DNA of 64,000 bases from positions 64,657 through 128,656 of the forward strand of contig CAWDWV010000003.1 in the NCBI GenBank assembly GCA_963806095.1, given 5' to 3'. Source of the stretch: Thermoanaerobaculia bacterium. GTDB lineage: Bacteria; Acidobacteriota; Thermoanaerobaculia; Multivoradales; JAIOJS01. This document shows, in pieces, positions 12,846-63,073 of this stretch. Made by a program: the position numbers and the translations under genes. Every line of letters begins with the position of its first letter. The stretch's first letter is position 1. The notes below the pieces were generated by a model, which did no database searches, was not told the origin of the DNA, and saw only the letters and a program-made list of their open reading frames with translations.

Positions 12846-15800
12846 TCAGCCGCCGAAAGACTCGAACGCCGCCCAGACGCCGGGGGATCGCTGGGCGGAT
12901 TCGGTGCTGTGCATCATCAAGAGCTGGGCGGCGCGCAGTGCCTTCGCAGGCGGCTCGCCATTTAGCAAGCGCCGGTGGAAGGCCGTCATGAGCGGCGCGG
13001 AAGGCACGTCGGCGATCGGCCAAAGGCTCGCTACCACGTCCGACACGCCGGCGGCGAGGAAGGCATGCGCGAGGCTCAGCGGGCCTCCGCCTCCGCCATC
13101 GTTACCGACGCCCGTCTCGCATCCCGACAACACCACCGCCTGAGTGCCGGTGAGGTCGAGCCTGGCAATGTCCGCGGCGACTAGCAAACCTGACCGGCCC
13201 TCCTTCTCGGCCAGCGGCAAGCTCGATCGGTCTGGATCGACGCGATTCGCGAGGGCGTGTCCGGAGAAGTGAACCACGTCCCTGTGGCCGAGCGCAGCGA
13301 GGAACGCAGCTCGCGTGGCGGCATTGCCGAGGAGCAGCTCGCGACGCGAGTAGAGCGCCGCCACCTCGCGAGCCTCCAATCTCGCCCCGGGGAGCGATCG
13401 GATCGCCGGGAACAAGGTCGGGTCAGTACGAGGATCGCCAACGACCAAGGCGTCGCGCGGCGTATCGGGGAGCTTCACACGGCGAGCTCGACTGCGCAGG
13501 AAGGCGACCGCGCTGGGAGCGATCGCAACCTCCCGCTCTTCGATCAGGAAGCGCCCGCTCGTCGGATCGATCAGTGCGGCAAACGGCAAGCTGTGCAAGT
13601 CCTTGTCGGGAACGATGACCAACCGACCGTTTGCGGGCTTCACCGGCGCCAGCAATGCGGAGTAGAGCTGCATCGCAGTCTCACGCGTGGCCGCGGTCCA
13701 GGCGCCGGCTTCGAGATCGGCCGCGAATGCCGAAATCAGCCGCCGCAGGTCGCGGGGAGATTTCCCAAGGCGTACGACAGAGACGCGGCTCCGTTCGACT
13801 CGCCACACCGTCACGCCGTCGGAAAGCCAGGAGTACAGGACTAGCGTGGTGTTGGGATCGAGTCGCGCCGCGACCTCGGCAGGCCGCAATGGCGCGCCTG
13901 TGAAGGAGTCGGCGCGTGCCTCGCCATTCCGCGTGAGCGCGCGGACGCGTTGCGCTCTCCCGGCCTCGGCCGCCGCGAACGCATCGTCTGCACGGCCTTG
14001 CATGAGCGCCAGCCGCACCCGCTCCGCAAAGAGCTCATCGGGCCGATCGAACCGAGGCGTCGAGAGCTGGCGGCTCTCCTGACCTCCTTCCTCGTCCATG
14101 AGCGCCAGTCCCTGGCGGAGGTCAGCTTCAGCTGCAGCGGCCTGGCCGGCCAGGACGTGGGCACGAGCCCGGGCGAGCAGGATCCCCGGCAGCCGCCAGT
14201 GGAGCCCCCGCGCGCGAAATCCGTCGAAGGCGCGTGAGAGGAGCTGTACGGCTTGCTCGGGATCGGTCGCAACCAGTCCGTAAGCGAAGTCCAGATCGGG
14301 GGCGAGATCGCGGCGTTCGAAGGGCCTTGCGCGGCTCATCCAGGCGCCGGCGCGCCGAAGCTCCTGAGCTGCCTCGTGCCGGCGCCCGAGCTCGCGCAGC
14401 ACGCGGCCACGCCAGAGGTAGGTGCGGGCGATCTGGTCCGGCTCGCTCATGTCGGGCTCTGCCAAGGTCGCCGCGAGAAAATCGGCGGCGACCCTTGGAT
14501 GTCCCTGATACAGCGCCAGGATGCCGGACAAGCGGAGGATGTCCATTGCACGTTCGCGATCTGTGAGGATCGCGGCTTGCTCCAGGGCGATTCGTCGATG
14601 CCTCCAACAGGCGTCACTGGTGCCCATCAGGCCGTAGACGTCGCCGATGAGATGGTGCAACGCCACAGCGGGTTCGACGTCATCAAGCCGTTCATAGGCG
14701 TCGAGCGAGAGCCGGTATTCCGCTAGGGCGGTCGCGAAGTTCCCGTGCCTGACGTGCAAGACGCCGGAGATCCACCACGCACGACCGATGGTCGCCAAGT
14801 CGCGGGGCGAGTGGCGGGCGATCGCTGAGGCTTGTGCGCCTACCTCACCGCCGCGGTAGCCCAAGCACGCCAACCGCACGAGGGCGGCCCACGCGAGGGC
14901 TGGGCTTTCCGCCGGAAGCGCGCTGAGCGCGCGCTCCGCCGCGCCCTCGGCAGCGTCGAGGTCGAAGGCGGCAAGCGCGCGGCTCGCCTGTCCGAGGTCG
15001 CGGTATGCGGTGACCAGCCGTTCCAGGGCGCTGCCCGTTGCGTTCTCGATTTCGGCAACCGCTTCGCGCAGGGTCAGGTCGGTGGTCTGCGCCTCCCACT
15101 CGTCGGCGATCAGGCGGGCGGCTGCGAGTTGGCGCTCCGCCGCTGTCCGGTCGCCGGACAGCCACGCTTCTGCCCAACCGGGCAGCAAGTCTTCCTGCAC
15201 GCTCGCGCGAGCGAGGTGACGATGCGACGCGACGAGCTCCGCGAGCCGTTCGCGGTCGCCACCGTCCGCGGCCGCCGCGATTTCGGCGCGGATGCGAGCT
15301 GGATCGGGCCGCGCCGGAATGACGATCGCCTCCAACCGCCGCTGCGCTTCGCGCGCCCACGCGCCTGAGTCATCGACGTCGAGATAGGCCTGCCAAGCCG
15401 CGAGCGCCGAGCGCCGCAGGTAGAGGCGCTCGAGCGCCAAAGCGCGGTTAAACAGTGCCTCGGGAAGCCGCGGCGAGATCTCGAGCGCGCGATCGATGGC
15501 TTCGAGGGCCGCGGGAATGTCGGCGTCACGGTCCTCCAGCTCGGCACCAGGGTTTTGCAGCCGACGCCGCTCGGCGAGCTCCGCGCGCGCCAGCAGCGCG
15601 GCCCCGAGGTCGCTCAGCAGCTCGGCCGAGTCCGGCGCCGCCGCCGTTGCGCGCTGGAGCGCCTCTACCGCCGACTCGGTGCGTCCGCCGAGTGCGTAGA
15701 CGGCTCCGACCGCTCCCAGCTCAGCGGCGGTTGGATCGGCGGACGCTCGCCGGCGCTGCTGCGCGGCTGCGACGTAGCGGGCAGTCCCAGGCTCCAGGTA

Positions 15801-16430
15801 AGGCTCGCGCGAGAGCTGCGCGCTCCATCGCCCGACGAGAGGCGCCCACGCCAGCCCGCCCGTGAACCGAGGTGTCACGAGTCGCTCGGCGCGCGCTGTC
15901 GAGTCGGGCGTGGTTTCGCGCCGGCTCTTGGGCAGGTGAGTGCCGAGGACCGCCCCGAGTACGACCGCGAGGGCAACGACGATCAGTGTCGCCGGTCGTG
16001 TCCTTCGCGGCGGATGGATCCTCGACGGTTCGGTTCCCGCAGCCGCGTAGACCAACAGCGAGGTGGGCCACGGGATCTTCGATTCCGCCGAGTCGCTACC
16101 CGGGAGCAGCGTCCGCAAGCGCTTGGAATCGACCCATTCGAACCGCCTCGGGCCTGGCGAGTTCCCGACCACGCGCTCGTCTTGTCTCTCTGAGATCTTG
16201 ACGAGCGCCTGGATGAGTTCCTGGACATCGTCGCCGCACCTGTCACACCGCTCGAGGTGGGCGGTCACCCGTGTCTGCTCGTCGGGCGGGAGCTTCCCCT
16301 CGAAATACTCGCTATACGTGTCCTGATCGGGGCACGGGCCCGGACCCCACCCGAAACGCCATCGGCGGAGTCGGGACGCAAGGCCGCGCCGGCGGCTCGA
16401 CTTGCGGTGGCGCCCGCTCTCAGCCGCCAC
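12846..16430 (-). CDS. zf-HC2 (anti-sigma-like) + TM + TPR array + CHAT protease domain protein
   Basis: N-terminal HLERCDRCGDDV, TM segment TLIVVALAVVLGAVLG, and long TPR-like repeats. The C-terminal CHAT domain has VVHFSGHA and AVVLSGCETG (caspase-like His/Cys dyad). Confidence 0.85.
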   Translation of the reverse strand: MAAESGRHRKSSRRRGLASRLRRWRFGWGPGPCPDQDTYSEYFEGKLPPDEQTRVTAHLERCDRCGDDVQELIQALVKISERQDERVVGNSPGPRRFEWVDSKRLRTLLPGSDSAESKIPWPTSLLVYAAAGTEPSRIHPPRRTRPATLIVVALAVVLGAVLGTHLPKSRRETTPDSTARAERLVTPRFTGGLAWAPLVGRWSAQLSREPYLEPGTARYVAAAQQRRRASADPTAAELGAVGAVYALGGRTESAVEALQRATAAAPDSAELLSDLGAALLARAELAERRRLQNPGAELEDRDADIPAALEAIDRALEISPRLPEALFNRALALERLYLRRSALAAWQAYLDVDDSGAWAREAQRRLEAIVIPARPDPARIRAEIAAAADGGDRERLAELVASHRHLARASVQEDLLPGWAEAWLSGDRTAAERQLAAARLIADEWEAQTTDLTLREAVAEIENATGSALERLVTAYRDLGQASRALAAFDLDAAEGAAERALSALPAESPALAWAALVRLACLGYRGGEVGAQASAIARHSPRDLATIGRAWWISGVLHVRHGNFATALAEYRLSLDAYERLDDVEPAVALHHLIGDVYGLMGTSDACWRHRRIALEQAAILTDRERAMDILRLSGILALYQGHPRVAADFLAATLAEPDMSEPDQIARTYLWRGRVLRELGRRHEAAQELRRAGAWMSRARPFERRDLAPDLDFAYGLVATDPEQAVQLLSRAFDGFRARGLHWRLPGILLARARAHVLAGQAAAAEADLRQGLALMDEEGGQESRQLSTPRFDRPDELFAERVRLALMQGRADDAFAAAEAGRAQRVRALTRNGEARADSFTGAPLRPAEVAARLDPNTTLVLYSWLSDGVTVWRVERSRVSVVRLGKSPRDLRRLISAFAADLEAGAWTAATRETAMQLYSALLAPVKPANGRLVIVPDKDLHSLPFAALIDPTSGRFLIEEREVAIAPSAVAFLRSRARRVKLPDTPRDALVVGDPRTDPTLFPAIRSLPGARLEAREVAALYSRRELLLGNAATRAAFLAALGHRDVVHFSGHALANRVDPDRSSLPLAEKEGRSGLLVAADIARLDLTGTQAVVLSGCETGVGNDGGGGGPLSLAHAFLAAGVSDVVASLWPIADVPSAPLMTAFHRRLLNGEPPAKALRAAQLLMMHSTESAQRSPGVWAAFESFGG

Positions 16431-51219: not shown

Positions 51220-51452
51220 CTTTCGCGATCCATCGATAGGGGCCGGTGAAATCCCGGCATCGAGTCCGTCTATAGTGGAGCCGGCCTCCCGGTAGACGGT
51301 CTTTGGTCAGGATGAGCCCAGCTGGCTCCGCAGGAGCTCGATCCGGGTGTACACCGCGTCGTGGACACCCAAGGGCACGGAGTGTGCCGTCGGCGCGCTG
51401 CCGGTCACTGCCCCTTGCAAGGATCTGCCCGCCAATTCCGTTCGAGGGAGCG

Positions 51453-52454
51453 ATGGACGCATCCCTCCCGACGGCGGCCGATCCTTCAGCGCCGGCTGCG
51501 CCGCGGCTCCTCGACCGCGTCAGCCATCGCATCCGAGAGCGCCGGCTCTCCCGCCGAACGGAGGAGGCCTATCGGCACTGGGTACGGCGCTACGTGCTCT
51601 TCCACGGCAAGCGGCATCCCTCCGAGCTGGGCATCGTGGAGCTCAACGCCTTCCTCTCTCACCTCGCGGTGGAAGGTCAGGTCAGCCCCTCGACGCAGAA
51701 CCAGGCACTGGCGGCGCTGCTGTTCCTCTATCGCGACGTACTGCAGGTCGAGCTCGGGCAGCCACGCGACTACATGCGCGCCCTGCGGCCGCGACGGCTG
51801 CCCATCGTGCTGTCGAGAACCGAAGTGCGCGCGCTCCTCGCCCAGCTCGACGGCACCGAGCGGCTGCTCTGCACGTTGCTCTACGGCGCCGGCCTGCGGT
51901 TGATCGAAGGACTACGCCTGCGCATTCACGACCTCGACTTCGAGCGGCGCGAGATCACGGTGCGCGCTGGCAAAGGCGACAAGGACCGCCGCACCATCCT
52001 GCCCGCGAGCTCGGTGGAAGGGCTGCAGCGGCACTTGGAGGCCGTGCGCCGGCTCTGGGAGAACGACCACGCTACCAACCTCGAGGGAGTCTGGATGCCG
52101 GCCGCTCTGGACCGGAAGTTCCGCGGCGCCGGCCGCGAGTGGCACTGGCAGTGGCTCTTTCCCACCGCGCGTCCCCAGCGCGACCCGCGCAGCGGTGTGC
52201 TGCGCCGTCACCACTTGCTGGACCGAACTCTCCAGCGGGCGGTGAAACTCGCGGCAGGCAAAGCGGGCATCGCCAAGGCCGCCACGTGCCACACCTTGCG
52301 CCACTCCTTTGCAACCCACCTCCTAGAGGCAGGGTACGACATCCGCACCGTACAGGAGCTCCTCGGCCACCGCGACGTACGCACCACCATGATCTACACC
52401 CACGTTCTCAACCGTGGAGGCCTCTGCGTCCAGAGCCCGGCCGACTTCGGCTGA
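51453..52454 (+). CDS. intI: Integron integrase IntI (tyrosine recombinase)
   Basis: The IntI-specific insertion [39 protein letters not shown]. Catalytic boxes are [46 protein letters not shown] and [11 protein letters not shown]. At 333 aa it is similar in length to IntI1. Confidence 0.93.
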
Positions 52455-52614
52455 ATTCGGGCCGCGTTCGCGGCGGGAGTGAAACAGCTTCTGCGACGCC
52501 GCAGGAGATTGCCGTCACCGATTGTCCGATCCGCCCTGGAGACGAAACCGCATCTTGGACGCTATCCCTACGTCGCCTCGGGACTTGCCCTTCGCGCCGC
52601 GAATCGGGCCCAGC

Positions 52615-52847
52615 GTGTTACGCGTCAATCGGTGTCGCGTAACACTCGGGGAGCGGTTGGAAGGCGCAGGAATCCTTTGTCGCCACTTGCTTGTGAGTCG
52701 GCGAGATAAGCTGGGACATAACAGCGTGACAGCGCGTTACTTGCGGTCGTCGTCAGGTCTCGGGCTGCCGTGTGTTACGCGACAGCCGCATCCACAAGCT
52801 TGCCGGCCGGCTGGCACTCGACCTGTCGGTTAATCAATGGGTTAGGC
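52615..52847 (+). other. Candidate attI region: repeated GTTAC(G) boxes ending in the GTTAGGC crossover core
   Basis: GTGTTACGCG occurs at 52615 and 52772, with its inverted copy CGCGTAACAC at 52636 (10-bp arms, 11-nt spacer). GCGTTAC is at 52734, GGTTAAT at 52828 and GTTAGGC at 52841-52847. No R'' partner is nearby. Confidence 0.5.
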
Positions 52848-53267: not shown

Positions 53268-53291
53268 GACACTTCGCGCAAGGGCTTGCGA

Positions 53292-54635
53292 CTGTAGGGC
53301 CGACCGCTCCATTTACACTTTGACCGACCGCTGTGTTTACACTCTTCCTCTTCTTACCCTAGCTGTTCTTCCCATTTCTTTGGTCTGTCTTTGGTACGGA
53401 GTTGCAGCATAGAGCTTGAACTTCCGCTCGTCGAACCTGCCGAGGAGAACCGCTCCGAAGTAGAGAGACCAGACGCCGTCGTCGACCTCTTCAAACCCGA
53501 CGTTCTCCTCGGCCAGGACGCTGCTGATGTTGAGCCAGCGCTTGGCCCAGCGCACGCCGCCGTTGCGGCTGACCCTCCGGATCTCCAGATGACCTGGGTA
53601 CTCGATGCTCGGCTCCTGCTTTGGGTATGGCCGCGGCGAGGGCTGGTACAGCGAGGCCGGCGTTCGCTGGCCGATTCCTTCATGAGGTCGCACGAAGTTG
53701 TACTCGCGGCGGAAGGCGGTGAAGCGACGCTGTTGGGCTCTGGCGTTGCCTGCCGCGGGACGCGTGGTGCTCGCCTTCAGCGTCCGATGCATGCGCTCGT
53801 GGGCTCCGTTCTGCTGGGGCGACGACGGCTCGATCAGCTCAGGCCGGATACCCAGCTTGATCCACCACACCGACAGGCGCGAGAGGCGGCCCAGGGCTTC
53901 GCTGGCAAACGGCACTCCGTTGTCGGTTCGAATCGCCTCGGGCAGGCCAAACTCGCGGAAAAGCCGTTGCAGGACAAGCCTCGTCGGCTGGTACAGCGTG
54001 CCGTCGAGGCTCTGGCAGGCCAGCAGGAATCGGCTGTACCCGTCGACCACCGTAAGCGGATAGCAGTACCTGCCATCGCCGGTCTTGAACTGGCCTTTGA
54101 AGTCCATCGTCCACACTCCGTTGGCCTTCGCCATAGGTGTCGTCGGCCGCCCTGGATGCTCGACCCTGCGCCGCGTTCGACGTCGCCGCACCAGGCCGTG
54201 GCGCTCGAGGATCGAGCCGGCCGTGCTGGGAGCTGGCCAAGCCCGATCTGGCTCGAGCTCCCGCAGCACGGCGACGAGCTTCTTGGGACCCCAGCGAAGC
54301 TTGCGCTTGGCCGCCACCAATGCCTTCTCGATCTCCCGAGAGGTCCGCAGCGGTTGCTGCTTTGCCACCGGCGGGCGATCCGCCAGTGCCGACTCACCGT
54401 CTGCTTCGAACCTCTCCAGCCACTTGTACCCTGTGGGCCGGGAGATCCCGTACCGCTGGCATGCTTCGACCATGCTCAGAGTCCCGGACTTCAGGTCTCT
54501 GATGAAGCTCACGCGCTGGTCCATTCGATCGCTCTCCTTCCACGGCATCGACACCTCCTTGGAGGTGTCCATCGTGATCTACCGTGTAAATGGAGCGGTC
54601 GGTCTAAGTGTAAACAGAGCGCCCGGTCTGTACCG
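53292..54635 (-). mobile_element. IS481-family insertion sequence, copy 1 (1344 bp)
   Basis: Identical over all 1344 bp to 61730..63073. The ends carry repeated GACCGACCGCTNNNTTTACAC motifs in inverted orientation. It encodes a single rve/DDE transposase. Confidence 0.88.
53337..54572 (-). CDS. IS481-family DDE (rve) transposase
   Basis: N-terminal HTH (ACQRYGISRPTGYKWLERF). Integrase core is WTMDFKG...PLTVVDGYSRF...IRTDNGVPF...QQNGAHERMHRTLK. 411 aa. Confidence 0.9.
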   Translation of the reverse strand: MDTSKEVSMPWKESDRMDQRVSFIRDLKSGTLSMVEACQRYGISRPTGYKWLERFEADGESALADRPPVAKQQPLRTSREIEKALVAAKRKLRWGPKKLVAVLRELEPDRAWPAPSTAGSILERHGLVRRRRTRRRVEHPGRPTTPMAKANGVWTMDFKGQFKTGDGRYCYPLTVVDGYSRFLLACQSLDGTLYQPTRLVLQRLFREFGLPEAIRTDNGVPFASEALGRLSRLSVWWIKLGIRPELIEPSSPQQNGAHERMHRTLKASTTRPAAGNARAQQRRFTAFRREYNFVRPHEGIGQRTPASLYQPSPRPYPKQEPSIEYPGHLEIRRVSRNGGVRWAKRWLNISSVLAEENVGFEEVDDGVWSLYFGAVLLGRFDERKFKLYAATPYQRQTKEMGRTARVRRGRV

Positions 54636-54642
54636 TCCTGAC

Positions 54643-54718
54643 GCCTAACCCCTCGTTGCAGCGGACGCTACCCGGGCGTTCGCCCGGGCAGCGCCGCTGA
54701 ACTCATAAGCCGTTAGGC
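54643..54718 (+). other. attC 1 (76 bp)
   Basis: R'' GCCTAAC ... GTTGCAGCGG / CCGCTGAAC stem with an extrahelical G, a central GC hairpin, and R' GTTAGGC. Confidence 0.85.
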
Positions 54719-54744
54719 GGCTCGCTCACCAGCAGAGGTTTCTG

Positions 54745-55059
54745 ATGCAGCCGACCTTCACCGTCATCGTGCCAATCGAGGACGGCTTCTTCATGGAGCA
54801 GGTCACTGGGTCTTCTGCTGCCGAAGCCATCGCAACCTGGGCGCGCGAGTTCCCCGCGGACCTCGTTCCGAGTCTTGGCTTCCCCAACAAGCGCAGCTTG
54901 GTTGGTGGGCTCAAGCGGAATCCCCCTCTGACCTCGCGTGACAATCCCGGCGTGTGGTCGTCGAACCTCCGCACTGGGAAGCGATACATCCCAGTGGTGG
55001 TCGTGCGCACGCAAACCTCAAGTCGCGCACCCTCCAAGCGCCGCGGCAAGCGACTTTGA
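54745..55059 (+). CDS. Cassette 2: hypothetical protein (104 aa)
   Basis: A single ORF between attC1 and attC2. No family was recognised. Confidence 0.55.
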   Translation: MQPTFTVIVPIEDGFFMEQVTGSSAAEAIATWAREFPADLVPSLGFPNKRSLVGGLKRNPPLTSRDNPGVWSSNLRTGKRYIPVVVVRTQTSSRAPSKRRGKRL

Positions 55060-55065
55060 TTCGCC

Positions 55066-55141
55066 GCCTAACCCCTCGTTGCAGCGGGCGCTACCCGGGC
55101 GTTCGCCCGGGCAGCGCCGCTGAACTCATACGCCGTTAGGC
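55066..55141 (+). other. attC 2 (76 bp)
   Basis: GCCTAACCCCTCGTTGCAGCGGGCGCTACCCGGGCGTTCGCCCGGGCAGCGCCGCTGAACTCATACGCCGTTAGGC. Confidence 0.88.
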
Positions 55142-55175
55142 GGCACTCGGAACACTCGCGTATTGTCAGCATCGC

Positions 55176-55892
55176 GTGGAAGAAGAGACCGGACTCCAGC
55201 GCAGGCTTAAGCGGCTCAAGGGCCATCCGATCGTGTTGATCGTCGGTGTGCTCGGTGCTCTCCTTGTTTGGCTCGTGAAGGTGACTGATTCTGCCGAGAA
55301 GCTCGCTAGCTTGGTCTCTCGCGATCAGCCTCACGCAACGGCAACGGCAACTCCCGGGGTTCAGCCGCCGGATATCGCACAAGGCCACTCTGCTGCTCCC
55401 CAGTCGAGCCCTCTGCAAGCTCCGCTCGCCGAGATACGCGTGTTCCCTCTAGCCGAAGAAGCGGAGAGCCGTCAGCTCATCACCAAACTCCGAACGGACG
55501 CTGGCCTTCGCTCATTGTCGGTGGTCGAAACTGGCGCCCGCCTCGAGAACGCCCCTTCGGGGACCTTCTTCACGATGAGGGTCATCGACATAGTGGCGGC
55601 ATCGCTTTCCCAGGAGTCCAGGATCAGTTCTCGTCCCGTGAACAACTCCGACTACGAGATCCATCGCCCGCCTCGGAATGGTCCATTGCTCCTCGCATAT
55701 GTAACTCCCACTGACGCAGCCAAGCTCAGCTCGCTTCGTACTTCCGAGGCCCAGGTCCTCTTCACGCCGATACCCTTCGGACCGTTCTCAGTCCTTGCAC
55801 TAGTTCCAATCGATCGGCTCACAGCCCTAACCCCGCGTTACCTTGACACTTCCGACAGTTCTGTCGCGGCACTTGACGCAACTGTTCGGTAG
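55176..55892 (+). CDS. Cassette 3: hypothetical protein with an N-terminal TM helix (238 aa)
   Basis: TM segment IVLIVGVLGALLVWLV, then a Pro/Ala-rich linker and a globular domain. No family was recognised. Confidence 0.55.
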   Translation: MEEETGLQRRLKRLKGHPIVLIVGVLGALLVWLVKVTDSAEKLASLVSRDQPHATATATPGVQPPDIAQGHSAAPQSSPLQAPLAEIRVFPLAEEAESRQLITKLRTDAGLRSLSVVETGARLENAPSGTFFTMRVIDIVAASLSQESRISSRPVNNSDYEIHRPPRNGPLLLAYVTPTDAAKLSSLRTSEAQVLFTPIPFGPFSVLALVPIDRLTALTPRYLDTSDSSVAALDATVR

Positions 55893-55907
55893 GGCTCGCG
55901 CGGTGCC

Positions 55908-55982
55908 GCCTAACCCTTCGTTGCAGCGGGCGACAACCGGGCTTCGCCCGGTTGCCGCCGCTGAACTCAAGCGCCGTTAGGC
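55908..55982 (+). other. attC 3 (75 bp)
   Basis: R'' GCCTAAC at 55908 and R' GTTAGGC at 55976, with the same stem family. Confidence 0.88.
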
Positions 55983-56014
55983 GACACTCGGACCGCACAC
56001 AAGGGCCAGCCATC

Positions 56015-56686
56015 GTGAAGATCGGATCGCTCCGCATGGCAGTGTGGGTTGCCGCCTCTGCCGTTGTGTTGGCGACGCTCCTCTATTCCAGCTTTCGGGT
56101 AGGCGATCCCCAGTTCCTTGACGCAGCCATGAGCGGGCTGTTGTCGACGATCGTCGGTGTTGCACTTGGCGTCCCGGTGGGATTAGAGCTTGCCCGTCGG
56201 CAAGCAGCTGCAGACGAGTCCGCACGTACCGCGGCTGAACGGCAGTCCGAATTGCAGTACCTTGATCAGGTCGTCACCAACGTAGCGCTAGAGCTCGACG
56301 GGAACAGAGACCGACTGCGGCGGCTTCACGAGGTGCTCGACAGTGCGCCGAAGCCCAGCGCCGAACTTTGGGCCGCTGCCGTTGCCGTCGCGGACTCGTT
56401 CGCTTATGCAGCCTTCGACCACTTGCGCACGCTCCCGAATCTCCGGAAGCACTTCGAGCATCACGTCCTTGTCCTCAGCGTCTACCCGTCACTTCGGACT
56501 GTTGCCGCCGACATTCATGCTGCCGAGGCGCTTCACAAGTTCCACATGGGGTTCTCGTTAAATGAGGCTGCTGCCTGCGAGCAGTTTGACTCCATCAAAC
56601 AGTCCGTCGACTTTGGACACTCCGTCCTCGAAGATGCCGTGAAGTCCTGCGATCGCCTCCTCGACCGCCTGCGCAGTGTCGCTTAA
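56015..56686 (+). CDS. Cassette 4: hypothetical 2-TM + helical-domain protein
   Basis: VWVAASAVVLATLLY and LLSTIVGVALGVPVGL, then a helical region. The TAA stop lies inside R'' of attC4. Confidence 0.55.
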   Translation: MKIGSLRMAVWVAASAVVLATLLYSSFRVGDPQFLDAAMSGLLSTIVGVALGVPVGLELARRQAAADESARTAAERQSELQYLDQVVTNVALELDGNRDRLRRLHEVLDSAPKPSAELWAAAVAVADSFAYAAFDHLRTLPNLRKHFEHHVLVLSVYPSLRTVAADIHAAEALHKFHMGFSLNEAAACEQFDSIKQSVDFGHSVLEDAVKSCDRLLDRLRSVA

Positions 56687-56756
56687 CCCCTCGTTGCAGC
56701 GGACGCTACCCGGGCATTCGCCCGGGCAGCGCCGCTGAACTCATAGGCCGTTAGCC
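56681..56756 (+). other. attC 4 (76 bp)
   Basis: R'' GCTTAAC and R' GTTAGCC (variant cores) with the same internal stems. Confidence 0.8.
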
Positions 56757-56802
56757 GACACTCGGGCCATCGTTAAATGCTCAACATCGTCAAGACGCCA
56801 CC

Positions 56803-57795
56803 GTGAAGTTGACCCGCGCCCAGATCGAGCGAGAAGTCTTGTACACCCGCAGCTTCTTCGGGAGCGGCGATTTCGTGCCCACGGAATCGGCTGCTGCGAT
56901 CGAAGAGCGTTGCGCCCAGCTGATCCACTCCTTCGAGGTCATGAGAAAGGCGGTGGAACCGCTGCGGCCCGGCGAACACGCCATCGTGACTTTGACCCGC
57001 AGGAAGACAGCCGCGCTCCTGGCTGACCGAGTTTGGGGGGCCGACACGCTGGCCGATCTCGCGATTAACTTCGGCTGGGAACTGCCGCTGGAAGTTCGTC
57101 TTCGGGCGATGCTCCGCCTCCATCCGTACTTCGAGCGTTCGCCGTCCGCCCCCAAGGTGTCCCCGACCTCACAAGCCGAGACGGAGTCATTCTTGGCGGA
57201 CGTAGAGCGCGACTTGGCCCTCGGCCTTGCTCAGGCCAGCGGGGCAGCAGTCTCTCCTCTCTACAGTCTTGCCTCCAGGCGGGACCTCCAGTATCGCGGG
57301 GGTGACCAAGCGGCCATCGTCTGCATCGTCGACCAACTCGCGATCGTTGACGAGGATCAGATGTCGTGGGAACAAGTCGTAGAGTTCCGCCGTGATCAAG
57401 CTGCCCGCAAGGCCCACAGACGATTCGTGCACTGGCTCGATCGCGAGATGATCGACAAGCCAGTTCAGTACATCGCCGATGACCTTTCGCAACGCCTCGA
57501 ACGGTATGCATGGTCCTTACGGAAGCACGGGATTCAGACCGTGATCGGCTCGTTGAGCAACACCCTGAATCCCAAGTCACTCGTCGCGTCTTCAAGCGCT
57601 GGCGTCGCAGTCAACGTCATCACCGGCCAACCGCTCTGGTCGCTGCTAGCCACCGGCGGCTTGCTGCTCGGGAACGCGGCACTTTCTCTAGCTACTGCGC
57701 TTGTAGAAAGGCGAGACCTTGAGATGGCGTCTCCGGAGATATCCTACGTACATCAGCTGGCCGGAGAACGACGGTCTGATGCCCCGACGCTCTGA
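56803..57795 (+). CDS. Cassette 5: hypothetical 330-aa protein with C-terminal TM helices
   Basis: A soluble N-terminal ~250 aa, then GVAVNVITGQPLWSLLATGGLLLGNAALSLATAL. No family was recognised. Confidence 0.55.
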   Translation: MKLTRAQIEREVLYTRSFFGSGDFVPTESAAAIEERCAQLIHSFEVMRKAVEPLRPGEHAIVTLTRRKTAALLADRVWGADTLADLAINFGWELPLEVRLRAMLRLHPYFERSPSAPKVSPTSQAETESFLADVERDLALGLAQASGAAVSPLYSLASRRDLQYRGGDQAAIVCIVDQLAIVDEDQMSWEQVVEFRRDQAARKAHRRFVHWLDREMIDKPVQYIADDLSQRLERYAWSLRKHGIQTVIGSLSNTLNPKSLVASSSAGVAVNVITGQPLWSLLATGGLLLGNAALSLATALVERRDLEMASPEISYVHQLAGERRSDAPTL

Positions 57796-57810
57796 GCGAC
57801 CGAGAGTGTC

Positions 57811-57886
57811 GGCTAACCCCTCGTTGCAGCGGACACCACACGGGCGTTCGCCCGTGTGGTGCCGCTGAACTCATACACCGTTAGGC
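57811..57886 (+). other. attC 5 (76 bp)
   Basis: R'' GGCTAAC and R' GTTAGGC, with flanks GAGTGTC / GGCACTC that extend the stem. Confidence 0.88.
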
Positions 57887-57919
57887 GGCACTCGGAGCAC
57901 GAGAGGTAGGCTCGAGTCC

Positions 57920-58315
57920 GTGAAGATCAAGAAGCGCTCGGGCTCGCCCATCGGCAAGGCCGCCCGCAAGGGATTCCGTGGCTATCCTGTCGCCACAGTT
58001 GCGTTCTATGGGCCCGACGATCGCCGCGCCAGCAAAGTGGCAGTCGGCATCGTACTGTCGGAGGGCGCCGAGCCCGACATTCTCGAGCGCTGGTTCTCCG
58101 ACACTACGGACGTCCGGTTCGACCGCCGCATCGCCTCCGAGATCCAGGCATTTCTGGCTCGCAACGGTGCGAAGACTGTGGTCACGACGGGCGAGATCAA
58201 CGGCGGTCCACACGAAGAAGGCATCGACTATCCCGAAGGCGATGTCTGCCCCCAGTGTCCGTTCTGGGCCACCGTCGACCGCTGGACCCATGAGCGCCTC
58301 CCCCCATCGCAATGA
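57920..58315 (+). CDS. Cassette 6: hypothetical protein (131 aa)
   Basis: A single ORF containing CPQCPFW. No family was recognised. Confidence 0.5.
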   Translation: MKIKKRSGSPIGKAARKGFRGYPVATVAFYGPDDRRASKVAVGIVLSEGAEPDILERWFSDTTDVRFDRRIASEIQAFLARNGAKTVVTTGEINGGPHEEGIDYPEGDVCPQCPFWATVDRWTHERLPPSQ

Positions 58316-58346
58316 CTTCCCAGACACTCCTCGGCATCTTGCCGCT

Positions 58347-58424
58347 GCCTAACCCCCCGCTGCAGCGGACAACAACCGCGCGTTCGCCCGGTTGTTGCCG
58401 CTGAGCTCTCATACGCCGTTAGGC
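58347..58424 (+). other. attC 6 (78 bp)
   Basis: R'' GCCTAAC at 58347 and R' GTTAGGC at 58418. Confidence 0.85.
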
Positions 58425-58465
58425 GTCACTCGGAGCGCTCTTACACTCCCCAAGGAGGTTGCGGA

Positions 58466-58984
58466 ATGAGCCAAGAAGGTGGCGAGACCTCTGGTCTTGA
58501 TGACGCTCTCTACCAAGGTGCGCTAGCAGAGAAGCACCACTACGACAACCTGTCGTGGACCATCGGCGCAATCGCATTGATCGGCGCTGGCGTACTCGTA
58601 GTTGGGGTCATGCAGGTACCGGGCGCAACCTACCTCGCCCGACTCCCTAGCCAACTGGCGCTCGCGACACTAGCGGTAATCCTTCTGGAGGGATGGCGTC
58701 GCATCTATGAGCGCAATCGGTTCTGGGCTGAAGTCGCCAATGAGAAGCTACGTGACCTCGAGCGTGCACGAGGCGTCGAAGGCGTCACTCTCTCGTTCAT
58801 GAAGGCCGCGCTAACCGGTCAGGTAGTCCTCCAGAACCTCGACCACACTGGTGCGCCGTTTCGCGACCCCTATGTCGAGCGGTGCAGCCAGCACTCAATG
58901 CACGTCAACATCAATAGGGTACTTTGGTTCGTGATGGTCGTTGTGGTTATCTTTGCCCTCCTCCCTCATAGTCCCAAGCAGTGA
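58466..58984 (+). CDS. Cassette 7: hypothetical 3-TM membrane protein (172 aa)
   Basis: AAGGAGG RBS. TM segments are WTIGAIALIGAGVLVVGV, LALATLAVILL and VLWFVMVVVVIFALL. Confidence 0.6.
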   Translation: MSQEGGETSGLDDALYQGALAEKHHYDNLSWTIGAIALIGAGVLVVGVMQVPGATYLARLPSQLALATLAVILLEGWRRIYERNRFWAEVANEKLRDLERARGVEGVTLSFMKAALTGQVVLQNLDHTGAPFRDPYVERCSQHSMHVNINRVLWFVMVVVVIFALLPHSPKQ

Positions 58985-58985
58985 C

Positions 58986-59027
58986 GCCTCTAAAACCCCT
59001 CGTTGCGGAACTCATACGCCGTTAGGC
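58986..59027 (+). other. attC 7, abnormally short (~42 bp) and lacking the central hairpin
   Basis: GCCTCTAAAACCCCTCGTTGCGGAACTCATACGCCGTTAGGC. R'' is interrupted and the variable loop is deleted. Confidence 0.55.
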
Positions 59028-59157
59028 GTCAAGCCGATTCAGCCGTGAGACTGAGCCGTGTCTAGAGACACGGAGGTGAACTCCATGCGCGGTGCCGTCC
59101 CGAGTGGCCGCCCGGGACAAAAGAAGAGGGCAATGGTGCCTGGTATCATCGGCACAC

Positions 59158-59898
59158 ATGGCTAGATGCACGGCACCAGTTCGAGGCCACCGCACAGCGA
59201 GCGCTGCAGCGGACTGCCCTGCATGCGGTGGCCGCTATCGCGGCTACAGCGGATACGGTGGCTACAGCGGCTACCGGCCGAACTCGTCCCCCTCCTACTC
59301 GTCGGGGAGCAGCGTGGGCGGCGGGAGCAGCGTCGGAGGGTCCGGCAGCAGCGGGAGGCCGAGATGGTCGCGACCCGGTTCGTCCGTGGCCTACACGCCT
59401 GCCGAGGTGCGGGCTCTCACGCCGGTCCGCGCCAGTATCGAAAGGCGAGCGCCCTTGCCCGACCTTCGGGACGTCTTTCTCTGCCATGCGTGGGACGACC
59501 GGCTAGGGCCTGCCAAGGAACTGCACGACTTGCTTGAGTCAGTCGGTGTGTCGGTTTGGTTCAGCGAGAAGGACGTCGTCCTCGGCACGCCGTTGCTCCG
59601 TGAGATCGACAAGGGTCTGGCGAAGTCGCGAGTTGGGATCGTGCTGGTGACTCCTGCGTTGCTGCGCCGTCTCCAGGCAGAGGGCATCGCCGACAAAGAG
59701 CTTTCGGCACTCCTAGCGCGCGACCTGCTCGTCCCCATCGTGCACGGCACGACGTACGAAGCTCTTCGCGAAGTCAGCCCCCTTCTCGGCTCGCGAAGCG
59801 GCTTGAGTACAGCAGAAGGACCGATGGCAGACATCGCGGCCAAGCTCGGCGAGTTGGTTGCCTTCAGTCCATTGCCGGGTTCGGGCGTCGCGAGCTGA
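59158..59898 (+). CDS. Cassette 8: TIR-domain protein with an N-terminal Cys pair and a Gly/Ser/Tyr-rich linker
   Basis: DVFLCHAWDDRLGPAKELHDLLESVGVSVWFSEKDVVLGTPLLREIDKGLAKSRVGIVLVTPALL matches the bacterial TIR pattern (DVFISH..D...A..L...L...G..VW.D). GTG 59092 is an alternative start. Confidence 0.75.
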   Translation: MARCTAPVRGHRTASAAADCPACGGRYRGYSGYGGYSGYRPNSSPSYSSGSSVGGGSSVGGSGSSGRPRWSRPGSSVAYTPAEVRALTPVRASIERRAPLPDLRDVFLCHAWDDRLGPAKELHDLLESVGVSVWFSEKDVVLGTPLLREIDKGLAKSRVGIVLVTPALLRRLQAEGIADKELSALLARDLLVPIVHGTTYEALREVSPLLGSRSGLSTAEGPMADIAAKLGELVAFSPLPGSGVAS

Positions 59899-59940
59899 TG
59901 CCCAGCTCCTCGGTCGACAAGGTTCGCGCGGGAGCTTGAC

Positions 59941-60115
59941 GCCTAACCCGTCGCTGCAGCGGACAGCATCGGTGGTTCACACGCGGGGCGTTTTAGGGGT
60001 TCAGGGCCGCACGGCAACACGCCGTCGGTCATGCCGCGTGCGGAGCACGCGTCCTGCCCGTCGGCTTATGGCGTTCTGCCGCCGGGCGCTGCCGCTGAGC
60101 TCAAGGCCGTTAGGC
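59941..60115 (+). other. attC 8, atypically long (175 bp) or two degenerate attCs flanking an ORF-less remnant
   Basis: R'' GCCTAAC is at 59941 and R' GTTAGGC at 60109. An internal degenerate L'-R'-like copy (TTCACACGCGGGGCGTTTTAGGGG) lies at about 59975-59998, and an R''-like GGCTTAT at about 60062. Confidence 0.6.
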
Positions 60116-60131
60116 GGCAGGGGGGACGACC

Positions 60132-60719
60132 GTGACCACCCAACAGCGCGAAGGATTCCCGCCCAACTTCAGGGCGCAGGCACCGGCGTCGGAATCGGCA
60201 CTGTCGGCTGTTCGCGAGGCGCTTCCCGCCACGATCGGCGACGACTACTTCGCCTTTCTGGCGACTGCAAACGGTGGCGAAGGCTTTATCGGCGACTCCT
60301 ACGTCGTCATCTACTCAACGGACGACGTTCTCGCCTTGAACCGGGCCTACGAGGTCCACAGGTTCGCTCCCGGATTGGTCCTCTTTGGCTCAAACGGCGG
60401 CGGCGAGGCGTTCGCCTTTGACAGCCACTCCCAGGCGGCAAGCGTGGTGCAGGTACCCTTCATCCCGCTTCGTGCCCAACTCGCTGAACCGCTAGGCAAC
60501 AGCTTCTCGTCATTCCTCGAAGGTCTTCTCGCCGCGCAAGTCGACCCGCCGCCAGAGATCAACGACGACACGTTTGGCATGGAGGTCCACGAGATCAAGC
60601 CCGTCGTCTTCGGTGGCGACCCAACGGACCACGGTAACAAGGCCCTGATCCCTCGCCCGCAGCATCCGCCGTTGGTCGTCTTCTGGAACGACACCTACCA
60701 GAAGGTTACGGGTCAGTAG
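60132..60719 (+). CDS. Cassette 9: SMI1/KNR4 (SUKH-1) family immunity-type protein
   Basis: LPATIGDDYFAFLATANGGEGFIGDSYVVIYS and LVLFGSNGGGEAFAFD fit the SUKH-1 pattern. Confidence 0.65.
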   Translation: MTTQQREGFPPNFRAQAPASESALSAVREALPATIGDDYFAFLATANGGEGFIGDSYVVIYSTDDVLALNRAYEVHRFAPGLVLFGSNGGGEAFAFDSHSQAASVVQVPFIPLRAQLAEPLGNSFSSFLEGLLAAQVDPPPEINDDTFGMEVHEIKPVVFGGDPTDHGNKALIPRPQHPPLVVFWNDTYQKVTGQ

Positions 60720-61486: not shown

Positions 61487-61735
61487 GTGCTCATGCACCC
61501 GACTAAGAGTGATCGCGGTCTAGGCTTTTGTCTCGCGGCCTTCGCGGCTCGGCTGCTGCTTCCAGCAGCCTACGTTGCCGCGATAACGGTCTATCCGATC
61601 GCTCGCTTCGACTTCGGAGTTGGCGCCGCTCTGCTCTGGATCCTGATTTCCGTGTTCATCGTGCCCACCAGCGTTCTCATTCTTGTGCTGCGGGGCCGCC
61701 GCCGTCCTCAGACGGGCGAATGGGCTCGTCTGTAG
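61487..61735 (+). CDS. Cassette 11: small 2-TM membrane protein, 3' end supplied by the IS
   Basis: 82 aa. The TAG stop at 61733-61735 lies inside the left end of IS copy 2. Confidence 0.5.
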   Translation: MLMHPTKSDRGLGFCLAAFAARLLLPAAYVAAITVYPIARFDFGVGAALLWILISVFIVPTSVLILVLRGRRRPQTGEWARL

Positions 61736-63073
61736 GGCCGACCGCTCCATTTACACTTTGACCGACCGCTGTGTTTACACTCTTCCTCTTCTTACCCTAG
61801 CTGTTCTTCCCATTTCTTTGGTCTGTCTTTGGTACGGAGTTGCAGCATAGAGCTTGAACTTCCGCTCGTCGAACCTGCCGAGGAGAACCGCTCCGAAGTA
61901 GAGAGACCAGACGCCGTCGTCGACCTCTTCAAACCCGACGTTCTCCTCGGCCAGGACGCTGCTGATGTTGAGCCAGCGCTTGGCCCAGCGCACGCCGCCG
62001 TTGCGGCTGACCCTCCGGATCTCCAGATGACCTGGGTACTCGATGCTCGGCTCCTGCTTTGGGTATGGCCGCGGCGAGGGCTGGTACAGCGAGGCCGGCG
62101 TTCGCTGGCCGATTCCTTCATGAGGTCGCACGAAGTTGTACTCGCGGCGGAAGGCGGTGAAGCGACGCTGTTGGGCTCTGGCGTTGCCTGCCGCGGGACG
62201 CGTGGTGCTCGCCTTCAGCGTCCGATGCATGCGCTCGTGGGCTCCGTTCTGCTGGGGCGACGACGGCTCGATCAGCTCAGGCCGGATACCCAGCTTGATC
62301 CACCACACCGACAGGCGCGAGAGGCGGCCCAGGGCTTCGCTGGCAAACGGCACTCCGTTGTCGGTTCGAATCGCCTCGGGCAGGCCAAACTCGCGGAAAA
62401 GCCGTTGCAGGACAAGCCTCGTCGGCTGGTACAGCGTGCCGTCGAGGCTCTGGCAGGCCAGCAGGAATCGGCTGTACCCGTCGACCACCGTAAGCGGATA
62501 GCAGTACCTGCCATCGCCGGTCTTGAACTGGCCTTTGAAGTCCATCGTCCACACTCCGTTGGCCTTCGCCATAGGTGTCGTCGGCCGCCCTGGATGCTCG
62601 ACCCTGCGCCGCGTTCGACGTCGCCGCACCAGGCCGTGGCGCTCGAGGATCGAGCCGGCCGTGCTGGGAGCTGGCCAAGCCCGATCTGGCTCGAGCTCCC
62701 GCAGCACGGCGACGAGCTTCTTGGGACCCCAGCGAAGCTTGCGCTTGGCCGCCACCAATGCCTTCTCGATCTCCCGAGAGGTCCGCAGCGGTTGCTGCTT
62801 TGCCACCGGCGGGCGATCCGCCAGTGCCGACTCACCGTCTGCTTCGAACCTCTCCAGCCACTTGTACCCTGTGGGCCGGGAGATCCCGTACCGCTGGCAT
62901 GCTTCGACCATGCTCAGAGTCCCGGACTTCAGGTCTCTGATGAAGCTCACGCGCTGGTCCATTCGATCGCTCTCCTTCCACGGCATCGACACCTCCTTGG
63001 AGGTGTCCATCGTGATCTACCGTGTAAATGGAGCGGTCGGTCTAAGTGTAAACAGAGCGCCCGGTCTGTACCG
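61730..63073 (-). mobile_element. IS481-family insertion sequence, copy 2 (1344 bp, identical to copy 1)
   Basis: Offset by exactly 8438 bp from copy 1, in the same orientation and with an identical transposase ORF. Confidence 0.88.
61775..63010 (-). CDS. IS481-family DDE (rve) transposase (identical to 53337..54572)
   Basis: The 411-aa translations are identical in the ORF track. Confidence 0.9.
   Translation of the reverse strand: MDTSKEVSMPWKESDRMDQRVSFIRDLKSGTLSMVEACQRYGISRPTGYKWLERFEADGESALADRPPVAKQQPLRTSREIEKALVAAKRKLRWGPKKLVAVLRELEPDRAWPAPSTAGSILERHGLVRRRRTRRRVEHPGRPTTPMAKANGVWTMDFKGQFKTGDGRYCYPLTVVDGYSRFLLACQSLDGTLYQPTRLVLQRLFREFGLPEAIRTDNGVPFASEALGRLSRLSVWWIKLGIRPELIEPSSPQQNGAHERMHRTLKASTTRPAAGNARAQQRRFTAFRREYNFVRPHEGIGQRTPASLYQPSPRPYPKQEPSIEYPGHLEIRRVSRNGGVRWAKRWLNISSVLAEENVGFEEVDDGVWSLYFGAVLLGRFDERKFKLYAATPYQRQTKEMGRTARVRRGRV

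Follow-up and report, generated by a model that had tools for sequence, protein, structure and literature searches.

A solitary, strongly conserved TIR-domain gene in an integron cassette of a Thermoanaerobaculia genome is a candidate self-contained NADase

SpbK, encoded on the Bacillus subtilis mobile element ICEBs1, is one protein in which an N-terminal domain and a flexible linker precede a TIR domain; it depletes nicotinamide adenine dinucleotide (NAD+), and a phage portal activates it by collecting its N-terminal domains, whereupon the TIR domains form head-to-tail active sites (PMC12847820). AbTir is laid out as a coiled coil (residues 27-118) followed by a TIR domain (residues 134-267) (bioRxiv 10.1101/2022.05.07.491051), and the brc22 and brc23 cassettes of mobile integrons, for which phage resistance has been demonstrated, encode a ThsB homologue together with a membrane protein of ~300 amino acids (aa) (bioRxiv 10.1101/2024.07.02.601719). 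Plant TIR-only proteins are described as having no sensor domain and as being activated by substrate-induced condensation (PMC10972746). Both the carriage of a TIR gene in an integron cassette (the two-gene ThsB cassettes) and defence by a single TIR protein (SpbK) are already known. The gene considered here encodes a TIR-domain protein and occupies a one-gene integron cassette within a stretch of 64,000 nucleotides (nt) of contig CAWDWV010000003.1 from a Thermoanaerobaculia bacterium of the phylum Acidobacteriota (the whole stretch, hereafter the window). Within its family, which is large and carries the label TIR or 'ThsB' in databases, it is unexceptional, and no studies of this family were found in the literature searched.

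Compared with these systems, the gene resembles that of SpbK in being a single gene on a mobile element, with no dedicated effector partner and with clustering of the TIR domains as the proposed route of activation (PMC12847820). However, the N-terminus of SpbK is a four-helix bundle that docks on the SPβ portal, whereas here it comprises a Cys/His knuckle and a segment predicted to be disordered; SpbK makes ADP-ribose (ADPR) and N1-cyclic ADPR (N1-cADPR), whereas the window family is without the aromatic cyclisation residue; and no sequence relationship between the two was seen outside the TIR fold. The catalytic Glu in ...YEL/KEL..., the BB-loop Gly and a helix before the TIR domain are shared with AbTir, BtTir, PdTIR and BtpA, and the charged, coiled-coil-like N-terminus of distant family relatives reproduces the AbTir arrangement. 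In the window protein this coiled coil is absent, a knuckle-like motif and low-complexity segment standing in its place, AbTir W204/W227 are replaced by Ile/Val, and the family is predicted to be non-cyclising whereas AbTir yields 2'cADPR. Thoeris ThsB has in common the TIR domain, the PADLOC ThsB profile match and the defence-associated contexts, but differs in that ThsA is absent from the window and from ~90 related loci, that Pfam ThsB_TIR is unmatched and that the structure is nearer the AbTir type. The brc22/brc23 cassettes likewise carry a ThsB-like TIR gene but hold two genes, whereas the window cassette holds one and the membrane protein encoded upstream (172 aa) belongs to a separate cassette. 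The parallel with plant TIR-only proteins is a lead: they too have a TIR without a sensor domain and an activity that depends on self-concentration, but they come from another kingdom, their products are signals and a dedicated low-complexity domain is absent from them.

The favoured reading, to which a probability of roughly 0.55 is assigned, is that the gene encodes a self-contained, single-protein TIR NADase serving as an abortive-infection (anti-phage) effector in the manner of SpbK. The protein would be kept inactive at low local concentration until infection, or another conserved cue, led its N-terminal knuckle and low-complexity segment, as a clustering or sensing module, to cluster it; clustering would bring about head-to-tail TIR pairing, by which active sites would form; and the enzyme would hydrolyse NAD+ to ADPR and nicotinamide, starving cell and phage of NAD+, with no cADPR signal made for a second protein. 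The gene would also bring its own promoter, with a -10 box 7-8 nt from the ATG and hence a leaderless mRNA, which would allow expression at the eighth position of a cassette array and in many unrelated hosts. Besides the lack of a conserved partner gene, the carriage on mobile vehicles and the frequent location in defence islands, which are described further below, the features of the gene and protein on which this reading draws are as follows.

59158-59898, forward strand: TIR-protein gene, 246 aa plus stop, starting at ATG 59158 and not at GTG 59092
59167-59226, forward strand: N-terminal Cys/His motif C4-x6-H11-x8-C20-x2-C23, invariant in 84 of 84 relatives
59236-59355, forward strand: Ser/Gly/Tyr(/Arg)-rich low-complexity segment, residues 27-66, defined by composition and a predicted local distance difference test score (pLDDT) of ~30
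59356-59469, forward strand: conserved pre-TIR segment (RPRWSR.GSSV.YTPAEVRALTPVR...), residues 67-104, with a predicted helix at residues 81-97
59470-59862, forward strand: TIR domain, residues 105-235, from Pfam TIR_2, PDB profile matches and Foldseek
59686-59688, forward strand: codon ATC for I177, at the AbTir W204 position in the family-profile alignment
59698-59700, forward strand: codon GAG for E181, the predicted catalytic Glu, aligned with AbTir E208 in 'DWTNYEL'

The C-terminal TIR fold claimed in the original prediction was recovered by both profile searches and structure prediction. Pfam TIR_2 (PF13676) matched residues 128-219 of a 268-aa reading of the frame with 50.2 bits (cut-off 28; E 4.3e-13), a single-sequence search returned PdTIR, BtTir, AbTir and BtpA/TcpB chains at E ~1e-11, and the family profile matched AbTir, BtTir, PdTIR and BtpA at E 1e-15 to 1e-16 and ~28-30% identity, with no other PDB chain below E 1e-3. 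A model predicted by AlphaFold2 from 42 family members (mean pLDDT 59.8) showed the alternating strand and helix pattern of the flavodoxin-like TIR fold over residues 100-235, and in Foldseek its matches to PdTIR, BtpA, BtTir and AbTir filled the top 21 ranks (TM(target) 0.78-0.87, reaching 0.87 for PdTIR and BtpA; probability 1.00), with TIR-STING, plant TIRs and SARM1 at far lower ranks. The motifs that had been quoted for the N-terminal cysteines, the Gly/Ser/Tyr linker and the TIR domain (CTAPVRGH...CPAC, the GYSGYGGYSGY.../SSGSSVGGGSSVGGSGSSG stretch, DVFLCHAWDD, VSVWFSEKDV and SRVGIVLVTPALL) are all present in the 246-aa translation, and the catalytic glutamate, for which an alignment with AbTir had been proposed as a check, was found at E181.

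This residue is equivalent to AbTir E208 and invariant in all 84 relatives, the family's G-I-A-D-K-E-L-S-A-L-L-A-R-D aligning with D-W-T-N-Y-E-L-D-G-L-V-A-R-E of AbTir; the BB-loop glycine G143, also invariant, is equivalent to AbTir G174, while R171 and V195 occupy the AbTir K202 and W227 positions. In AbTir, the E208A substitution is inactive, G174A has no or very low activity and W204A reduces 2'cADPR from 93% to 24% of product, and an aromatic residue at the W204 position is the mark of all cyclase TIRs among 122 tested domains (bioRxiv 10.1101/2022.05.07.491051). In the window family this position is Ile in 82 of 84 relatives and Val in the other 2, and there is no aromatic residue among the 16 residues preceding E181 (PALLRRLQAEGIADKEL). 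As the cyclisation aromatic is replaced and none precedes E181, the family departs from the cADPR-producing TIRs of the AbTir, ThsB and HopAM1 type and is predicted to hydrolyse NAD+ rather than cyclise it, and ADPR and nicotinamide are the expected products rather than cADPR.

The N-terminal region has a different character. Residues 1-26 read M-A-R-C4-T-A-P-V-x-G-H11-R-T-A-S-x-A-A-x-C20-P-A-C23-G-G-R, and the four residues C4, H11, C20 and C23, which are without exception among the 84 relatives and become C-x2-H at the last pair in divergent members, presumably form a small zinc-binding knuckle; a Pfam search of the N-terminus at E up to 10 gave sub-threshold zinc-ribbon matches only. The low-complexity segment that follows is 22-46 aa long across the family, with a composition of 38% S, 22% G, 14% Y and 7% R, a pairwise identity of 50% and recurring [G/S]Y[G/S] triplets, and is predicted by AlphaFold2 to be disordered. 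The last 11 residues of the window protein are not conserved. More distant relatives (P0209, P0228 and P0270; 44-49% identity over the TIR domain) keep Y-T-P-x-E but have a charged, coiled-coil-like N-terminus in place of everything before it, which marks the N-terminal module as swappable. This exchange suits clustering or self-association as well as a sensor role, and by analogy with SpbK it is plausible that the N-terminal region is the sensor, as had been suggested.

Two features precede the start codon, and they bear on where the protein begins and how it may be expressed.

59121-59149, forward strand: predicted promoter-like element, by homology to a conserved element in relatives
59085-59165, forward strand: 26-codon open reading frame (ORF; MRGAVPSGRPGQKKRAMVPGIIGTHG*) with GGAGG at 59072-59076, not conserved in relatives

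The long frame ending at 59898 could start at GTG 59092 (268 aa) or ATG 59158 (246 aa), and exact look-ups of both products matched no record. Across 83 related loci the protein starts M-[AS]-x-C-T-A-P, usually MARCTAPV, a start kept in almost all of the 84 relatives, and the PADLOC whole-protein profile begins exactly at the Met of MARCTAP, which is residue 23 of the 268-aa reading. The start is placed at ATG 59158 on these two grounds, and the GTG 59092 start, whose extension is not conserved, was rejected. Nor is there support for the suggestion in the original prediction that the small upstream ORF marks a frameshifted longer N-terminus. That ORF is present as described, in another frame than the TIR gene, with GGAGG 8 nt 5' of its ATG and a TAG that overlaps the TIR start, but its proposed role as a leader is not supported: neither the ORF nor its GGAGG was found when the 5' regions of the family were compared, and the frame of the underlying element is not kept. 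It is mostly a translation of the promoter-like element and of cassette-specific sequence, its C-terminal half (MVPGIIG...) deriving from the conserved DNA element, and is probably not a gene. Exact-pattern scans of genome contigs returned no relatives of the cassette-specific 5' segment, and metagenome contigs gave two chance matches, so the conservation of the small ORF is judged only against the other 5' variants of the family. Translational coupling from it, in this one cassette only, is possible. At one related locus, from a Terriglobales metagenome-assembled genome (MAG; L026, position 5001), ATT stands in place of the conserved start ATG and the promoter-like element retains its in-frame upstream ATG, and this is either a defective copy or a gene using the upstream start.

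The 5' regions of the relatives fall into two kinds, those with a Shine-Dalgarno sequence (...GGGAGGATTACGAC-ATG) and those with none, in which TTGAGA, 17 nt, TATCAT and 7 nt lead to the ATG, an arrangement conserved in ~16 relatives. The window cassette is of the second kind: AAGAAG (59121-59126), a poor -35, is followed by a 17-nt spacer and an extended -10, TG-n-TATCAT (59141-59149), which ends 8 nt before the ATG and of which the TATCAT (59144-59149) is intact, with TG two bases upstream. The element is read as a promoter because substitutions in its -10 keep the consensus (TATAAT, TATAGT, TATTAT, TACAAT) and not a reading frame. The inner ATG, translated as 'MVPGIIGH' in some gene calls (P0002, P0005, P0013, P0047), is missing in L010, L023, L068 and L077, is followed by a stop in L022 and lies in another frame in L078 and the window, while being in frame in other loci. 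With such a promoter, transcription would begin at the ATG or beside it, giving a leaderless or near-leaderless mRNA. DNA similarity between loci begins no more than ~185 nt upstream of the ATG and ends at the stop codon, and from this extent the mobile unit is taken to be the promoter together with the ORF. Five loci outside integrons (L001, L063, L084, L085 and L018) share ~130-185 nt of conserved upstream DNA beyond the promoter-like element (…ACCGAATGACCGAGAATGGT…GGGCCACAGCCGAGGGG…AGTCGCTTTG…), which had no Rfam match. A 163-nt contig from a soil metatranscriptome run (X17) is identical to 59176-59338, which weakly suggests that the TIR gene is transcribed; soil metagenomes contain many variants of the gene at 85-95% identity.

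The carriage of the gene by an integron cassette, and its place as the eighth in the array, were borne out by the following features.

51303-52454, forward strand: integron integrase gene (TIGR02249, 446 bits, and Pfam), its exact start uncertain
58983-59030, forward strand: attC of cassette 7, short (~48 nt) and without a central hairpin (model R1 28.9 bits, E 5.5e-5; alignment)
59022-60109, forward strand: integron gene cassette 8, with one gene, from core sites, attC model matches and attC alignment
59938-60118, forward strand: attC of the TIR cassette, 175 nt, from its cores, a fold z of -2.4 and a looser home-made attC detector

The ORF is followed by an attC with R''/L''...L'/R' cores, in an array lying beside the integrase gene and an attI whose crossover, G|TTAGGC, was located by sequence inspection at 52841, and 14 core sites GTTAGGC/GCCTAAC were observed against 2.8 expected. 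A covariance model of attC (R1), trained on five very uniform 82-nt attC sites from the window, matched the forward strand at 54640, 55063, 55905, 56678, 57808, 58344, 58983 (short), 60727, 61363 and 63078. Three home-made detectors based on regular expressions and complementarity missed the window's own attC and were dropped, and a looser fourth, although it detected that site, proved too narrow. The 5' end of the TIR cassette is set by the R' core GTTAGGC at 59021-59027 of the cassette 7 attC, which alone folds weakly, and the cassette runs from the crossover G|TTAGGC (59021/59022) of that site to the crossover G in its own attC; its limits, its single gene and its eighth position, counted from attI, follow from the flanking core sites and this own attC. 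The latter consists of R'' GCCTAAC (59941-59947), L'' GCTGCAGCGG, a long central insert, L' CCGCTGAGC and R' GTTAGGC (60109-60115). Its R''/L'' and L'/R' boxes are as in the other attCs of the window, while its centre is ~100 nt longer, as a result of which R1 detects only its 3' half (60078-60118). Among related loci, R1 matched on the strand of the gene at at least 12 of 83, in several phyla (L002/3, L006, L008, L017, L030, L031, L035, L038, L040, L044 and L045 among them); the model being narrow, this count is a minimum. An Rfam scan of the integron part of the window and one related locus found no RNA family near the TIR gene.

Some further observations concern the array itself. The attC sites over 54640-58427 are near-identical (82 nt, 89% mean column identity, perfect central hairpin), as is typical of a sedentary chromosomal integron, the exceptions to this uniformity being the attC of the TIR cassette and the short attC before it. 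The integrase of classical integrons is divergent from the cassette array; here array and integrase gene share a strand, the 3' end of the gene facing attI (51303-52841), and the arrangement is not divergent. Two IS481-like copies lie within the array (53289-54600 and 61727-63040), 100% identical over at least their first 300 nt and each encoding on the minus strand a 411-aa transposase with rve and HTH domains (53337-54572 and 61775-63010). The cassette that follows (60132-60719) encodes a protein of the SUKH/SMI1-KNR4 family (Pfam, 38.8 bits), whose usual annotation is that of immunity proteins in polymorphic toxin systems. The preceding cassette (58466-58984) encodes the 172-aa protein, which has several hydrophobic segments and matched nothing in Pfam, PADLOC or NCBIfam. 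Some 35 kb from the integron, at 12846-16430 on the minus strand, is a gene whose 1194-aa product combines TPR repeats with a CHAT (caspase-like) domain at its C-terminus.

Beyond the window, the family is large and widely dispersed. A word-indexed search returned at least 8000 scored matches, the best of them 73-89% identical, 228-260 aa long and from soil and water metagenomes and MAGs; among 50%-identity representatives, which were searched exhaustively, 6369 clusters matched at E<1e-3 and 170 at E<1e-30; and in species-representative genomes 382 relatives were found among the 600 pattern matches listed, the best 80 being 65-85% identical. Hosts span at least 10 phyla overall, across which members are 65-87% identical, and include Alpha-, Beta- and Gammaproteobacteria, Acidobacteriota, Gemmatimonadota, Verrucomicrobiota, Planctomycetota, Bacteroidota, Firmicutes, Myxococcota, Chloroflexota, Rubrobacteraceae and Vampirovibrionales. 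Family members are carried by 212 plasmids in PLSDB (124 from Klebsiella, with megaplasmids of the Bacillus cereus group and plasmids of Acinetobacter baumannii, Enterococcus and Lactococcus among the others), adjoin tet(39) on small A. baumannii plasmids, and occur in 110 of 5426 complete Escherichia coli genomes (~2%). Mean pairwise identity across phyla is 82% for the TIR domain and ~75% for the N-terminal motif, despite synonymous sites that are largely randomised, a sign of strong and long-lasting purifying selection; the G+C content at third codon positions (GC3) ranges over 0.18-0.78, mostly following the host, and codon entropy in the first 20 codons (0.61-0.66 against 0.75 overall) indicates a mild effect only. 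Identity of 90-94% at the DNA level between gene copies in MAGs of different phyla indicates, in addition, recent transfer between phyla. In a Klebsiella pneumoniae IncFIB plasmid (L090, 4273-6483) and an E. coli chromosome (L092, 7491-9687) the TIR gene lies directly downstream of an ISNCY transposase on the same strand, and looks like a passenger gene of an insertion sequence (IS) of that family. In a 10-kb A. baumannii plasmid (L091, 1762-7037) it lies with two hypothetical genes between XerC/D-type pdif sites, of which six were found against 0.01 expected, in a stretch that adjoins the tet(39) module.

Several observations weigh against the favoured reading. No enzymatic or phage data for any family member were found in the literature searched. 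The AlphaFold2 model is only moderately confident, with a pLDDT of 68-85 over TIR residues 100-235 and below 50 for residues 1-79. Both Trp residues by which AbTir contacts the substrate analogue (W204 and W227) are replaced (I177 and V195), so that the putative activity could be weak or different. As for the promoter, the -35 is poor and a generic promoter scan of the window called none at the TIR gene, a silence at the element that can be put down to this weak -35. Lastly, sensors of phage proteins usually diversify, and the cross-phylum conservation of the TIR domain and N-terminal motif is atypical for such a sensor; the unusual conservation of the N-terminal module argues against the recognition of a fast-evolving phage protein. 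The trigger might instead, speculatively, be something conserved, for example nucleic acid or a host state, or the protein might be switched by concentration or condensation.

A more specific version of this last idea, which is given a low probability, is that the protein is a host-independent immune or stress module, triggered by no particular phage protein, in which the zinc knuckle and the FUS-like Ser/Gly/Tyr/Arg segment would drive condensation induced by nucleic acid or stress and thereby turn on the TIR NADase. It would explain an N-terminus nearly unchanged from Firmicutes to Proteobacteria, the lack of a partner, and the hopping of the gene as cassette, IS passenger or plasmid gene. 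If true, it would represent a bacterial immune enzyme activated by phase separation through a dedicated low-complexity domain.

A second possibility, likewise doubtful, is that the protein is an orphan Thoeris sensor (ThsB) whose nucleotide signal would activate a ThsA-type effector encoded elsewhere in the genome. PADLOC, which the original prediction had proposed as a check, recognises the protein, its profile PDLC00424 'ThsB1|ThsB' matching the whole of it at 400 bits (E 7e-121); ThsB-like TIR genes are reported from phage-protective integron cassettes (Kieffer et al., bioRxiv 10.1101/2024.07.02.601719), and SpbK too makes a cyclic product, the receptor for which, if any, is encoded elsewhere (PMC12847820). 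However, Pfam ThsB_TIR gave no match, no ThsB structure was among the top 50 Foldseek matches, where the nearest were of the AbTir/BtpA type, and the aromatic position required for cyclic products is Ile. There was no PADLOC or Pfam match to ThsA, SIR2 or Macro effectors in the cassette or its neighbours, and the 172-aa membrane protein was rejected as a ThsA-like partner, given its separate cassette, its lack of PADLOC and Pfam matches and its not being a conserved neighbour. The TIR gene, which had been claimed to stand alone, is the only gene of its cassette and has no conserved neighbour in ~90 related loci: all-against-all clustering of ORFs within ±5 kb at 83 loci found no shared neighbour, the multi-locus clusters being overlapping frames of the TIR gene itself, and when the 150 ORFs directly flanking the gene were scanned with PADLOC and Pfam, no family occurred in more than 4, with neither ThsA nor SIR2 among the 25 most frequent families listed. 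A gene moving alone between phyla would, moreover, seldom meet a receptor. The Thoeris explanation fails on the absence of both an adjacent ThsA and a cyclisation residue.

Also unlikely is a role other than defence against phage, either as an NAD+ or nucleotide enzyme linked to stress or physiology, or as a toxin for element maintenance or competition that benefits mobile elements. The housekeeping-like conservation across phyla, the randomised synonymous sites and a GC3 that tracks the host would be in keeping with such a role, as would the frequent occurrence of the gene on plasmids, beside ISNCY transposases and in integrons and the many loci outside recognisable defence islands (L086-L089, which have ordinary-looking surroundings, and L092). 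Set against this are its patchy distribution, exemplified by the 2% of E. coli genomes, the lack of an antitoxin-like partner and the recurrence of defence genes among the neighbours, which include RmrA, CapP/Peptidase_M78, MADS mad3/mad8, GajA, LmuB, BrxL, SMODS, Pycsar-type and ThsB-type TIRs, BglII and Abi_C. At L085 the TIR gene lies between a CBASS operon and a Gabija-like pair in a conjugative element, at L084 between two ubiquitin-like defence modules beside integrases, and at L001 beside GmrSD and a methylase.

It is very improbable that the protein is a counter-defence hydrolase of TIR fold that degrades signals and blunts the cADPR-based immunity of recipient cells. The loss of the cyclase Trp with retention of the catalytic Glu and the carriage on mobile elements would suit that role, and an animal TIR-fold cADPR hydrolase has been described (PMC13455253), but the family is virtually absent from 50,697 phage records (two matches at ~30% identity, over the TIR domain only) and its neighbours are defence rather than anti-defence genes. 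Least credible of all is a Tcp-type virulence factor (BtpA/TcpB- or TcpC-like) that disturbs eukaryotic Toll-like receptor signalling, since, although BtpA/TcpB and PdTIR are among the closest solved structures, the family resides mostly in free-living soil and aquatic bacteria and MAGs of at least 10 phyla, has no secretion signal and is found in integron cassette and defence island contexts.

What appears to be new is the family-level picture, of an orphan, ultra-conserved, partner-less TIR protein with a putative zinc-knuckle and low-complexity N-terminus and a non-cyclase signature, often with a leaderless-type promoter and common in clinical plasmids. A note of caution also follows for annotation, in that orphan 'ThsB' matches should not be read as Thoeris systems. 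The family is among the most widespread and most conserved single-gene TIR modules found in this analysis. Should it prove to provide defence unaided, by depleting NAD+, it would contribute to phage resistance commonly and in an easily transferred form, from clinical plasmids to soil integrons, and its odd N-terminus may offer a tractable system for how a partner-less TIR enzyme is held off and then switched on.

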